NCBI RefSeq assembly: GCF_013167455.1 | Contig: NZ_CP038328.1 | DNA from: Escherichia coli O157:H7 | GTDB taxonomy: Bacteria > Pseudomonadota > Gammaproteobacteria > Enterobacterales > Enterobacteriaceae | Length of the DNA stretch: 64,000 nt | Strand: one strand, 5' to 3' | Shown here: positions 59,969-63,885 of the stretch, piece after piece | Layout of the letters: each line of letters opens with the position of its first letter | Position numbering within the stretch: position 1 is the first letter of the stretch | Notes under the pieces: generated by a model | Told to the model about the DNA's origin: nothing | Database searches by the model: none | What the model saw: only the letters and a program-made list of their open reading frames with translations | Translations under genes and position numbers: made by a program

Positions 59969-60906
59969 CCCCTGAATCCTGCCGGGATCTGGCTGTAGTC
60001 CACGTTGTCGTAACTGGCTTTGAAGTACGGGTCCTCGCGTTTTTCGGTGTACGTGCTGACGGACGGCGATAAGCGCAGGGAAAGCTCATCCCATTTTTCC
60101 CGCAGCTTCGACGGGCTGAGCACGTTACGGCACCAGAACGGATCGCGACTGACGCGGCTGTACATCTCGCAGATTTGTTTATGAGTACGACCATCCTGCA
60201 CACACATCAGGCGAATTTCGTTTGCCCAGGCTGTCCAGTTCGGTTCTTTGGGACGAACCACCTCGCCGTCACATTCGGCGGCATGCTCGTACAGGGCGAT
60301 GATTTTTTTCCAGAGCCACTGTGCACAGGTCAAATCATCCTGCGTCCCCCACTGGCGCTTTTTAGGGCTGAATACAACCGCATCAGGATGGCGAGTTAAA
60401 AAATCCTGTTCATCCGTCTGCGTGTCCGGTTGCGAAGCGTCCGGACGAGAAGGTTTTTTATCTGACGGATCATGTTTTGATTTTACTGACGGATCCCCGC
60501 CAGATTCTGACGGGTGAAAACCCGCTTTTTTGCCAGATTTCGACGCATCAAATTTTGACGGGTCAGATTTTGATGCGTCAGATTTTGACGGGTCAGAATC
60601 TGACAGTTGAGAAAATGCCGCTGCCTGAAGCTTCGCAACGTTAAGCTGATAAACATTCGACGCATTGCGGTTACCCTGGCGACGCGCCTTACGCGTTAAC
60701 CAGCCTTCTGCTTCCAGCCGTGCGATAGCCGTTCTGACGGTGCTCATCCCCGCGCCAATCTGGCGGGCAATGGTTTCAATTGATGGCCAGCACACACCTT
60801 CGTCATTACTGAAATCAGCCAGGCGGGCCATAATTGCCACGCTGGATAACTTCATGCCTGACGCAGCGCAACCATCCCATACATAGCCGGTTAATTTAGT
60901 GCTCAT
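59965..60906 (-). CDS. Replication initiation protein (lambda O-like, iterons embedded)
   Basis: N-terminal winged-helix region, internal repetitive SKSD/ASKS linker encoded by DNA iterons, C-terminal domain. Confidence 0.6.
   Translation of the reverse strand: MSTKLTGYVWDGCAASGMKLSSVAIMARLADFSNDEGVCWPSIETIARQIGAGMSTVRTAIARLEAEGWLTRKARRQGNRNASNVYQLNVAKLQAAAFSQLSDSDPSKSDASKSDPSKFDASKSGKKAGFHPSESGGDPSVKSKHDPSDKKPSRPDASQPDTQTDEQDFLTRHPDAVVFSPKKRQWGTQDDLTCAQWLWKKIIALYEHAAECDGEVVRPKEPNWTAWANEIRLMCVQDGRTHKQICEMYSRVSRDPFWCRNVLSPSKLREKWDELSLRLSPSVSTYTEKREDPYFKASYDNVDYSQIPAGFRG
60450..60610 (+). repeat. Iteron array (putative phage replication origin) inside the replication gene
   Basis: About eight tandem copies of TGACGG(A/G)TCA-like units (e.g. 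GATTTTGACGGGTCAGATTTTGATGCGTCAGATTTTGACGGGTCAGAATCTGACAG). Confidence 0.55.
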
Positions 60907-61254: not shown

Positions 61255-61802
61255 GCGTTAGTTTCTCCACAGTCACGACACGCCACGGCGCCCGGAGCTG
61301 CACACTCGCGGGCGTCATTACTTTCTGAAATGCAAAAAATTTTGTAGACCAGTGCTGCATGCTCCTGCAGCTTCGAAATTGAGAGGTACAGCTCGTCGTT
61401 AATTGCTGTCTTCTCATGCGGTTCCACTACACCGTCTTCAATTGCTGAACGAATCTGTTTTGAATAACTGCCGATCTGTTCAATGACCTCCAGCAGGCGT
61501 TGGTTGATATCGGCGTTGTCCACATCCTCGACATCAGGAAGAGACACAAAGACGCCATTTGCAGACTGCGCCACAGCGTCAGCAATGAAGTGAGTTCCAC
61601 CAGCACGTTGCAAAATCATTGCCCATCCCAGCGGGAAAATCTGATCGCCATCGGCACGAAGGCGGTTAAATAATGCGTTCTCTGTTACATCCAGCCAGTC
61701 AGCAGCTTCAGCGTACCCCCCCGGCAACGCTGCGATAGTTTTTCTGACAGCTTTCACGTACCACTCAGGCTGTTTTTCTACTTTCCAGTGATGCTTACCC
61801 AC
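61251..61802 (-). CDS. Phage early regulatory protein (cII-position; YdaT/CII-like?)
   Basis: 183 aa directly downstream of cro-like gene with start/stop overlap. Confidence 0.35.
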
Positions 61803-62055
61803 GGTTCACCTCCTGTTCCTGTGGTTTAAACCCATTCTGGTTTTGGCTAGATTGAAAACGTGCCGGATAAAGAATCTGCATTTCGCTGACTTCACCCTTA
61901 AAAAAATTGGCTAAACGTTCTGCAAGCTCGATAGATGGAATCTGCTCCAGCCTCTCAATACGACTCAACGTCGCTGGATTGACTTGAACACCCGCAGCAA
62001 CATGCTGCAAAGTGAAACCATGCGCCTTACGCACATTTCGTAATGGTGATTGCAT
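61795..62055 (-). CDS. cro: Cro-like HTH regulator
   Basis: HTH (HGFTLQHVAAGVQVNPATLSRIERLEQIPSIELAERLANFF); divergent from cI across an operator-rich spacer. Confidence 0.6.
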   Translation of the reverse strand: MQSPLRNVRKAHGFTLQHVAAGVQVNPATLSRIERLEQIPSIELAERLANFFKGEVSEMQILYPARFQSSQNQNGFKPQEQEVNRG

Positions 62056-62152
62056 ACGCCCTCCAAATATTGCGCGTTATGCATGTTATTTCACGCAATT
62101 ATTTTGCGCAAGTTGATTTGCTTATCACGCAATAAAGAAATGTAATAAACGC
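62056..62152 (+). promoter_or_regulatory. cI/cro divergent promoter-operator region (OR-like)
   Basis: Repeated CACGCAA / TTGCGCA half-sites including palindrome TTGCGCAA and two TCACGCAAT copies. Confidence 0.5.
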
Positions 62153-62845
62153 ATGAACATAGGAAACCGAGTCAGACAACTTCGCCAAGCGAAGAACATG
62201 AAAATCGCCGATCTCGCTGAAGCGATAGGAGTAGATGCGGCGAACATCTCGCGCTTAGAAACGGGTAAGCAAAAACAATTTACCGAACAAACACTGAGTA
62301 ATATTGCCAAGAGCTTAGGTGTTGATATTGCTGATCTCTTTACCTCTGCCCACAAAAGTAATACTGTATATAAAAACAGTAATAATGAGGATGTTGCGCA
62401 GGTGAAGGATGTGTTCCGTATTGAAATGCTGGATATCAGTGCCAGTGCGGGAAATGGCCTTATCCAGGGCGGTGATGTCATTGATGTGATTCATGCCATC
62501 GAATACAGAACTGATAATGCTGTATCAATGTTCGGCGGACGACCAGCCAATCACATCAAAGTTATCAACGTTCGTGGGGACAGTATGTGTCCAACCATTG
62601 AGCCAGGAGATCTCATCTTCGTTGATGTCAGCATCAATCAGTTTGATGGTGATGGTATATATGTCTTTGGTTTTGATGACAAAATATACGTTAAAAGACT
62701 TCAAATGATTCCTGACAAACTGCTGGTGATTTCTGATAACCAGATTTACCGTGAATGGGGAATTACTAGCGAAAACGAACACCGATTCATGGTCTTTGGA
62801 AAGGTCTTAATCAGTCAGTCGCAAACCCTTAAGAGACATAATTAA
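62153..62845 (+). CDS. cI: CI-like prophage repressor (HTH + S24 LexA-like peptidase domain)
   Basis: N-terminal HTH (VRQLRQAKNMKIADLAEAIGVDAANISRLETGKQ); C-terminal S24 motifs (VRGDSMCPTIEPGDLIFVD … VKRL). Confidence 0.85.
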   Translation: MNIGNRVRQLRQAKNMKIADLAEAIGVDAANISRLETGKQKQFTEQTLSNIAKSLGVDIADLFTSAHKSNTVYKNSNNEDVAQVKDVFRIEMLDISASAGNGLIQGGDVIDVIHAIEYRTDNAVSMFGGRPANHIKVINVRGDSMCPTIEPGDLIFVDVSINQFDGDGIYVFGFDDKIYVKRLQMIPDKLLVISDNQIYREWGITSENEHRFMVFGKVLISQSQTLKRHN

Positions 62846-62863
62846 CCTCAATATCCCATCCAT

Positions 62864-62887
62864 CGGCCACCGAAAGGTGGCTTTTTA
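62864..62887 (+). terminator. Rho-independent terminator after cI
   Basis: GGCCACCGAAAGGTGGC followed by TTTTT. Confidence 0.6.
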
Positions 62888-62899
62888 TTACCTATAAAT

Positions 62900-62936
62900 T
62901 TGCATATCTCGCAAATACCACTTGCATATCTCGCAA
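62900..62936 (+). promoter_or_regulatory. Two direct repeats of TTGCATATCTCGCAA (candidate OL operators / PL promoter)
   Basis: Identical 15-mers at 62900-62914 and 62922-62936; second gives TTGCAT -35 with 17-nt spacer to TATCTT. Confidence 0.4.
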
Positions 62937-63122
62937 TTTAATTTTATCTTTTATTCCAGACCAACTACAGGATTACAACAAAATCTGGTTGCAACACGGT
63001 GCATGTGTCGTAAGCAGTCAGTAAATGTCAAAAACGAACAGGCAGGACGCCCACGAAGTAGCCGCCTGGGGCATATGAAGTCCAGGATGATTCGTTGAGT
63101 CATGTTGTGCCACTAGGCACTC

Positions 63123-63419
63123 ATGTTAAAGCAGGTGTATGAAATGAAAGTCCAGATTTTAAACAATAACTGTGAAGTCGTTTGGTCATACGACATAGCC
63201 GCCCCTGTAGATCAGAGCGGCGATAGCTGGACCAATGGGAAACATCAGATTATGGCTGGAGTTGTGTTCTCTTTACGCCGTGCTTTAGAACAGGCTGAAG
63301 TCTTTCCATCAGACCCTGAATGGAAATGGCCTTTTTCTATTTGTCCAAATTCGGAGAGTACATTTCAGAAAATTGGTCAGAAAGTCGCACTCGAAGAGCA
63401 TCAGCCAACTGTTTCCTGA
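63123..63419 (+). CDS. Hypothetical phage early-left protein
   Basis: 98-aa ORF downstream of the PL-like promoter. Confidence 0.3.
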   Translation: MLKQVYEMKVQILNNNCEVVWSYDIAAPVDQSGDSWTNGKHQIMAGVVFSLRRALEQAEVFPSDPEWKWPFSICPNSESTFQKIGQKVALEEHQPTVS

Positions 63420-63582
63420 TTTTTTCAGGTAACTCGTCGGCATCGCAGAAACAACAACGCTCGATCATGTTGAAAGCCGATTCGTAGAACTGTTTTTGCT
63501 GAGTGTCGCTGAGACAGGAAAAGAGCGACGTTACGATGATTTTATTAATTGCATTATCAAGTTCTTTTTCATCAAAAGTCAT
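63337..63582 (-). CDS. Hypothetical small acidic phage protein
   Basis: 81-aa ORF; partly overlaps the opposite-strand ORF, so at most one may be real over the overlap. Confidence 0.3.
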   Translation of the reverse strand: MTFDEKELDNAINKIIVTSLFSCLSDTQQKQFYESAFNMIERCCFCDADELPEKIRKQLADALRVRLSDQFSEMYSPNLDK

Positions 63583-63837
63583 TTGATTTTCCTTTTATGT
63601 ATACGGGCTTAAAAGGATACCACCGAGCCTGAAGTGGTGAAAAGACAGGCACATAACAGCTAAGTATTTTCAACCAGAGAGAATCCTTAGCGTTGTGGTG
63701 AATGCGGCTCAGCGCACGCGGGTTAAGGTTGAGGCTGACAGTCGACCTTCTGTGGATACCCACCCGCCTGGTGTGCAACCTTCGCCAGGCACCGGGAGGC
63801 ACCCGGCACCACAACTTTATGCTGTGTGTAGTCTTAG

Positions 63838-63885
63838 CGGTACCAGCTTGTACCCTTGCTTCCGGCTGGTACCGTCCTTTTTACA
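63838..63885 (+). terminator. Putative rho-independent terminator / structured RNA element
   Basis: CGGTACCAGC … GCTGGTACCG arms followed by TCCTTTTT. Confidence 0.35.

Follow-up and report, generated by a model that had tools for sequence, protein, structure and literature searches.

A shared 15-bp operator motif on both sides of cI in the probable immunity switch of an SfII-type prophage of Escherichia coli O157:H7

Results

Genes and relatives of the immunity region

We analyzed a region in a 64,000-nucleotide stretch of Escherichia coli O157:H7 DNA (termed the window) that contains two divergent regulatory genes, cro and cI, separated by a 97-bp spacer as in the layout of a lambdoid switch. 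The cro-like gene (61795-62055, minus strand) is an 86 aa open reading frame that matches Pfam HTH_3 (E 5e-10), and it is preceded by a Shine-Dalgarno sequence, GGAGGG, at 62060-62065 on the same strand. A YmfL/CP76-type cII-like gene is located beyond cro. The cI repressor gene (62153-62845, plus strand) codes for a 230 aa protein with an N-terminal HTH (Pfam HTH_3, E 1e-11) and a C-terminal LexA-like S24 self-cleaving domain (Pfam Peptidase_S24, E 6e-19). The Ala99-Gly100 cleavage site and the Ser144 and Lys181 catalytic pair of this protein are unchanged across the homologues aligned, HK022 CI included, so that CI has both the N-terminal HTH and the self-cleaving domain, with its Ala-Gly site and Ser/Lys pair, of a lambdoid switch repressor. 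Directly after cI is an intrinsic terminator (62865-62890, plus strand) composed of the hairpin GGCCACC-GAAA-GGTGGCT (stem 62865-62882) followed by a T-run. This terminator is annotated in Shigella phage SfII, and relatives have other hairpins with T-runs at the same place. In SfII, the plus-strand genes downstream of it continue to xis/int.

The segment from 61790 to 63130 exhibits 99.3% identity to the cI/cro region of SfII, where both genes are annotated as such, and ~90% nucleotide identity across cro, cI and OL to coliphage mEp460 and several Stx2-converting phages (Stx2a_1447, phiSTEC1575-Stx2k). The CI protein is 100% identical to SfII CI and 42% identical to HK022 CI. Positions 62040-63010 match a chromosomal site of E. 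coli O157:H7 FRIK2455 at 100% identity, and 1039 of 5426 complete E. coli genomes (~19%) contain close copies of this segment. For the comparisons described below we used a set of 87 related prophage loci.

Two identical 15-mers and a predicted promoter beyond cI

An initial annotation had reported two identical 15-mers past the cI terminator, and these are indeed present at 62900-62914 (OL1) and 62922-62936 (OL2), each with the sequence TTGCATATCTCGCAA. There are exactly two copies of this 15-mer, 22 nt apart from start to start, with the first copy beginning 18 nt past the stem of the terminator. The -35/-10 pair that had been proposed to overlap them is likewise found, located at the second copy. 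This predicted promoter, PL (62922-62950, plus strand), has a -35 of TTGCAT (62922-62927), a 17-nt spacer and a -10 of TATCTT (62945-62950), with agreement to the consensus at 7/12 bases. Transcription from PL would start near 62957 and proceed toward the early-left genes and xis/int. OL2 covers the PL -35 and part of its spacer, and OL1 lies upstream of the -35.

An alternative to a PL operator is that the OL sites are mainly a distal anchor for looping to OR, where they would tune PR and PRM. This would fit with the weak consensus match of PL, with the failure of our promoter scan to call it, and with the looping of OL to OR by HK022 CI across a similar distance (PMC8053113). However, the -35/-10 layout of PL is the same in Kp4871-1, Eeyore and ST64B, a promoter is required at this point for the early-left genes on the plus strand, up to xis/int, and in ST64B and Eeyore a conserved leader RNA starts a few tens of bases past PL. 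We consider a role mainly as an anchor to be unlikely, and note that an anchor and a PL operator are not mutually exclusive.

One motif is common to OR and OL

A search of the window for TTGCATATCTCGCAA with up to 3 mismatches returned four matches, the two OL copies and two sites in the 97-bp cI/cro spacer. Specifically, site C (62118-62132, TTGCTTATCACGCAA) is identical to the OL sequence at 13/15 positions (2 mismatches), and site A (62070-62084, TTGCGCGTTATGCAT on the plus strand), which adjoins cro, is identical at 12/15 (3 mismatches). Chance would supply ~2.45 such 15-mer matches in the whole window and ~0.004 in 97 bp, and a chance origin of the OR matches is ruled out by the confinement of all non-self matches to the spacer. 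A repeat finder independently clustered 62118-62132 with both OL copies (family D1), and WTGCR-N5-YGCAW has three exact matches in the window, each of them within this region. We also scanned the window with a weight matrix that was trained on 40 site alleles from relatives only, with the window's own alleles left out. Sites A, C, OL1 and OL2, each in both orientations, gave the top 8 scores among ~128,000 positions. Matches to TTGC-N7-GCAW at 62070, 62118, 62900 and 62922 are the only strong ones in the 64 kb, indicating that the motif is common to OR and OL. All four clear sites, taken as putative operators, fit the one 15-bp pattern TTGC-N7-GCA(A/T), and the simple and most likely reading is that one CI repressor binds both the OL and OR clusters.

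This result bears on a difference that the initial annotation had drawn between OL and OR, namely that the OL 15-mers are unlike the OR half-sites. The half-sites that it listed in the spacer do exist, with CACGCAA at 62091-62097 and 62126-62132 and TTGCGCA at 62104-62110, as does the palindrome TTGCGCAA at 62104-62111. The claimed difference is nevertheless contradicted by the 13/15 and 12/15 matches in OR and by the shared motif that tops the matrix scan. The apparent anomaly arose because half-sites were paired in the wrong register, with CACGCAA at 62091 joined to TTGCGCA at 62104. We dropped this joined pair as an OR unit since ST64B, Kp4871-1 and Eeyore do not retain its left arm. What is left at 62091-62098 is an orphan right half-site, CACGCAA, that has no good left partner, resembles the right half of OL2 (family D7), is kept in the E. 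coli group and is absent from those same three relatives.

It can still be asked if OL and OR carry different motifs, with each side controlled by its own protein or by a separate binding mode of one repressor. The center of OR does hold the opposite half-site arrangement, CGCAA-N5-TTGCG (62094-62108), a layout that OL lacks and that could be recognized in another way, for instance by Cro. However, the left arm of this inverted arrangement is again not conserved in ST64B, Kp4871-1 and Eeyore, and OR has two full TTGC-N7-GCAW sites that resemble OL as closely, and score as highly, as described above. We regard separate motifs on the two sides as very improbable, and retain the reading that one CI would bind both clusters. 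With cI and cro divergent, operators between them and a second cluster with a promoter past the terminator, the labels OR and OL/PL given in the initial annotation are reasonable and its assignment of a prophage immunity region is supported.

Operator ends are fixed and operator cores vary among relatives

Comparison of sites A, C, OL1 and OL2 across the 87 loci reveals almost no change in the outer TTGC and GCA(A/T), with one OL1 of Kp4871-1 that ends in GCAC as the exception, and variation at positions 5-11. Distinct alleles among the relatives number 9 for A, 7 for C, 12 for OL1 and 19 for OL2. In the 40 alleles from relatives, positions 1-4 and 12-14 are invariant and positions 5-11 are variable, which is the design of 434-type operators. 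For example, site A in relatives has fixed TTGCG and GCAT ends around a variable core. Within the SfII-type group only 1/32 operator end positions is variable.

The repressor also bears on this pattern. ST64B and Kp4871-1, with CI identities of 83% and 71%, respectively, retain both the recognition helix VDAANISRLETGKQKQ and the same operator motif. ENT47670, with a CI identity of 50%, has a different recognition helix and the motif ATGCG-N5-CGCAT at OR and OL alike. Repressor and operators thus change together on both sides, as is expected if one protein binds both clusters. The spacing of OL1 and OL2 among relatives is 22, 23 or 24 bp, and the two sites are identical in only 4/87 loci, therefore their exact identity in the window is peculiar to this allele. 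These last two observations lead us to reject tandem duplication as a general origin of the pair. That the 15-mers are a recent local duplication, as their identity in the window might suggest, or are sites for an unrelated factor, is barely credible given that elsewhere the ends are kept as the cores differ, that the motif recurs at OR, and that in ENT47670 the altered recognition helix is accompanied by an altered motif in both clusters.

Predicted promoters and additional sites at OR

The predicted PR (62083-62111, minus strand) has a -35 of TTGCGC (62111 to 62106), a 17-nt spacer and a -10 of TAACAT (62088 to 62083), with a start near 62077. Its -10 is TAATAT in mEp460-type phages and Eeyore and TATTAT in ENT47670, and its -35 is unchanged in all relatives. 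Site A covers the edge of this -10 and the predicted start, and would have the role of lambda OR1. The predicted PRM (62118-62146, plus strand) has a -35 of TTGCTT (62118-62123), which is the left half of site C, followed by a 17-nt spacer and a -10 of TGTAAT (62141-62146), and site C would have the role of lambda OR3. In four lineages (E. coli, ST64B, Kp4871-1 and Eeyore) TGTAAT is found 6 nt ahead of the cI start codon, ATG, and a Shine-Dalgarno sequence is lacking upstream of cI. We infer that PRM transcription starts at the A of the cI ATG (62153), which would yield a leaderless cI mRNA.

A feature common to the three predicted promoters (PR, PRM and PL) is that the -35 is an operator half-site, TTGCnn, with -10 elements that are conserved. 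The conserved -35/-10 pairs that overlap A, B2 (a candidate site described below) and OL2 are weak consensus matches (7/12). Note that the promoter scan called none in OR or OL at its threshold, so these promoter assignments rest on manual reading of the sequence and on conservation.

Between sites A and C is a candidate middle site, B2 (62104-62118, TTGCGCAAGTTGATT), that has a good left half and a weak right half. It overlaps the PR -35, and its center at -42 from the cI start is the position of lambda OR2, a role that it may have here. B2 shows zero variation in either E. coli group. The corresponding sequence is TTGCGCAAGTTGCTT in Kp4871-1 and Eeyore and ATGCGCAAGGCGCTT in ENT47670, and 9/10 half-site bases are present in all three (with ENT47670 judged by its own motif). 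B2 also overlaps site C by one base, with centers 14 bp apart. Its matrix score is low (1.4), and its assignment as an OR site is therefore tentative; a symmetric element centered on TTGCGCAA (repeat-finder pair I4) is an alternative to it. OR thus has two clear sites (A and C) and one unvarying but degenerate candidate. By consensus match the best OR site is site C, and if affinity tracked consensus then PRM would be shut first, which is the reverse of lambda.

An operator-like site is also present inside cro (62020-62034, ATGCGCCTTACGCAC), located 50 bp from site A and ranked 10 of ~128,000 positions in the matrix scan. In the diverged relatives this site reads ATGCGATTTCCGCAA (ST64B), ATGCGATTTTCGCAA (Kp4871-1) and TTGCGATTTTCGCAA (Eeyore, a perfect TTGCG-N5-CGCAA), remaining operator-like despite changes in the encoded residues. 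This makes 62020-62034 a candidate for an extra repressor site downstream of PR.

OL cores are highly polymorphic

A separate observation concerns the variability of OL among 20 distinct SfII-type sequences (>=98% identity over 1230 bp). In this sample, 11/14 core positions of OL1 and OL2 and 4/7 OL spacer positions are variable, in contrast to 6/231 third-codon positions of cI and 0/14 core positions of sites A and C. The OL cores have a nucleotide diversity of 0.155, versus 0.005 at cI third positions (Fisher test p ~5e-15), such that they are ~30x more polymorphic than the cI synonymous sites. Diversity peaks at a 37-bp OL segment that has 17 haplotypes, versus a median of 2 for segments of equal size. 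Six loci with a 693-nt cI identical to that studied here carry five different OL haplotypes.

This variability could come from selection on repression strength, from a mutational hotspot or from copying between sites. A possible, though rather doubtful, reading is that the inner bases and spacer of OL are a hotspot of rapid and possibly selected change that tunes or evades repression among prophages with the same repressor, with the TTGC/GCAA contacts and all of OR frozen and with occasional copying between OL1 and OL2. Such copying would explain the identical OL pair in the window.

A conserved structured RNA in the predicted PL leader

A second separate observation is a conserved structured RNA of 66 nt (63033-63098, plus strand), ~75 nt past the predicted PL start, that scores 91 bits with a covariance model and has the 18-nt core GCCCACGAAGUAGCCGCC. 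This RNA is common to SfV, SfIV, ST64B and phages of Yersinia, Pantoea, Pectobacterium, Klebsiella and Providencia. Two of its helices, the outer helix and the second hairpin, exhibit abundant compensatory change, with 97.6% of cells paired versus 76% in shuffles and 19-53% in slid controls, and with 95 cells changed on both sides. Note that the 18-nt core, GCCCACGAAGTAGCCGCC, served as the exact-match seed for collecting these loci, so its invariance, and that of a third short helix that never varies, is partly by construction.

By the covariance model the window contains a single copy, and there is none in mEp460, Stx2a_1447, Kp4871-1, ENT47670, HK022 or HK639. In other phages the RNA lies directly after strong sigma-70 promoters and in some is then followed by a boxA-like GCTCTTTAACAA; in ENT47670 there is an N-like gene at the equivalent position. 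Here it follows PL in a phage without N, which is a put-like position. An identity with the put elements of HK022 (putL/putR) was considered and rejected, given that the model has no match downstream of cI in HK022 or HK639 and that the helix layout differs by eye. Rfam returned nothing in the PL leader and only a sub-threshold STnc100 match further right, and a literature search gave no match for the RNA core sequence. A second copy of the 18-nt core, as for a P4-style antisense target, is absent from both strands of the window. A crude scan for a terminator-like hairpin after the RNA found one in only 2/106 loci, leaving an arrangement of element and then terminator unsupported. A reasonable guess is that the leader RNA acts in processive antitermination.

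Discussion

The region described here is very probably the ordinary immunity switch of an SfII-type lambdoid prophage in E. coli O157:H7, with a single CI and one 15-bp operator family. We propose that CI dimers would bind this family, TTGC(R)-N5-(Y)GCA(A/T), at both ends of the region. On the cro side, occupancy of site A would cover the -10 edge and start of PR, B2 would cover the PR -35, and site C would cover the -35 of PRM, from which transcription probably begins at the cI ATG to give a leaderless mRNA. On the other side, OL2 would cover the -35 of the leftward early promoter PL, and OL1, two helical turns upstream, probably assists by cooperative binding. In a lysogen, both PR and PL would be closed by CI, which would also adjust its own abundance via B2 and C, and looping between OL and OR across ~800 bp is plausible. 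Upon DNA damage, self-cleavage of CI would release PR and PL. In this scheme we infer the binding protein, its cooperativity, the looping and the site affinities. A BLASTP comparison of the CI N-terminal domain with Cro gave no alignment, so that recognition of the same sites by Cro is only an assumption.

The finding of the 15-mers in itself matters little, as they belong to a standard repressor-operator switch, and the two side observations, OL variability and the leader RNA, are more interesting. Each may merit its own follow-up: the OL cores are strongly hypervariable beside a cI gene that hardly changes, and the widespread, strongly covarying RNA, which lacks an Rfam match, is located where early transcripts begin in phages without N.

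The region would work like the lambda switch and most resembles that of HK022. As in lambda, cI and cro diverge from an operator cluster that overlaps the predicted PR and PRM, and beyond cI is a second cluster that overlaps the predicted PL. Also shared are a single motif at OL and OR, a CI with an HTH and a LexA-like self-cleaving domain and, probably, a leaderless cI mRNA. There are also several differences. The operators here are 15 bp (TTGC-N7-GCAA) as opposed to 17 bp in lambda; OL has two clear sites rather than three, and OR has two clear sites plus a degenerate one, with center spacings of 34 and 14 bp versus 24 and 23 in lambda. Furthermore, cI stands alone with its own terminator and without rexAB, as a result of which OL and OR are ~800 bp apart instead of 2.3 kb, and no N gene follows PL.

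The resemblance to HK022 begins with the homologous CI. The HK022 cI/cro spacer also contains a 15-bp sequence, TGAACTTATGGTTCA (TGAAC-N5-GTTCA), twice, once near cro and once near cI, and HK022 likewise lacks N and has an RNA element just past PL. In HK022, CI binds cooperatively and loops OL to OR in vivo over ~700 bp, and there is an extra operator downstream of OR (PMC8053113). In contrast to these similarities, the two repressors show no sequence relationship in their DNA-binding domains, and the half-sites are different. Furthermore, the candidate extra site lies inside cro at ~50 bp from site A as opposed to 300 bp away in HK022, and the leader RNA has no match to the HK022 put regions.

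A further likeness is to phage 434 (ACAA-N6-TTGT), which shares the pattern of four fixed outer bases per half-site around a center that varies by site and allele. In 434 operators the central bases are not contacted and yet tune affinity. The N-terminal domain of CI is weakly similar to a 434-derived HTH chain (1sq8, E 4e-4). The site here differs from that of 434 in being 15 rather than 14 bp and in its half-site sequence. SfV, one of the phages that carry the leader RNA, is said to have a termination-based immunity, reportedly described by Roberts et al. in 2007.

SfII, mEp460 and several Stx2 phages have the same immunity type as the prophage studied here, with no difference in kind. The genome paper on SfII and SfIV mentions only the existence of an operator/promoter and of cI/Cro (PMC3851460), and we found no description of the operators of this immunity type in the literature searched. 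The operator definition may therefore be new for a kind of system that is already known. As such, TTGC-N7-GCA(A/T) is a usable definition for an immunity type that is present in about one fifth of complete E. coli genomes, in Shigella phage SfII and in several Stx2 phages, and it could help to predict mutual immunity among prophages as well as Stx phage induction.

A structured RNA in the PL leader

The leader of PL, the predicted early promoter at 62922-62950 (+), holds a conserved structured RNA at 63033-63098 (+) in which both the outer helix and the hairpin carry many compensatory changes. This RNA is found widely among temperate phages of enterobacteria; in other phages it is located after strong promoters and sometimes has a boxA-like sequence downstream of it. 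Note that its 18-nt core, GCCCACGAAGUAGCCGCC, was the exact seed of the search, and the invariance of this core among the matches is thus by construction. There was no match to the RNA in Rfam or in the put regions of HK022 and HK639. The RNA may act in antitermination or as some other kind of leader element.

A mosaic junction was also observed at 63000-63030 when the window was compared with the mEp460-type phages (loci L002-L005 of our collection of related prophages). From cro and cI through OL/PL and some 70 nt into the PL leader, the window prophage and these phages are alike, and near 63005-63025 they diverge completely; the mEp460-type phages are without the PL leader RNA.

Between PL and the early-left genes there are two small overlapping ORFs, one at 63123-63419 (+) and the other at 63337-63582 (-), neither of which has a Pfam match. 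Part of the latter is annotated in Shigella phage SfII as SfII_36; a promoter-like site at 63582-63553 accompanies this ORF, as do hairpins resembling terminators. Further along, 63662-63884 (+) resembles STnc100, an sRNA family in Rfam; the match spans the full length of the model with a score of 43 bits, slightly below the gathering score of 47 (E 3e-7), and overlaps an ORF annotated in SfII as hypothetical protein SfII_35.

Separately, the replication-protein gene contains a run of short CAAAATCTGAC-like repeats at 60531-60605 that may be origin iterons. An Rfam microRNA match drawn by these repeats is spurious.

Variation in operator sequences

In the left operators OL1 and OL2 (62900-62936) the inner bases are hypervariable, and so is the intervening spacer; this holds at the same place in loci L001 and L011-L032 as well. 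Among 20 near-identical sequences, 15 of the 21 positions in the OL cores and spacer are variable, as compared with 6 of 231 third-codon positions in cI and none of the 14 OR core positions. Five OL haplotypes are present among six loci whose cI DNA is identical.

In one relative, locus L083, the cI/cro spacer has two copies of TTGCGCAAGT at a distance of 14 bp; they occupy the central part of OR, immediately ahead of operator site C, giving three TTGC starts at 14-bp steps.

Finally, the cro coding region contains an operator-like site, ATGCGCCTTACGCAC, at 62020-62034, 50 bp from site A of OR. The operator pattern at this site is retained or even improved in diverged relatives despite changed amino acids. 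Phage HK022 has an extra operator downstream of OR (PMC8053113), to which the site within cro may be a parallel.
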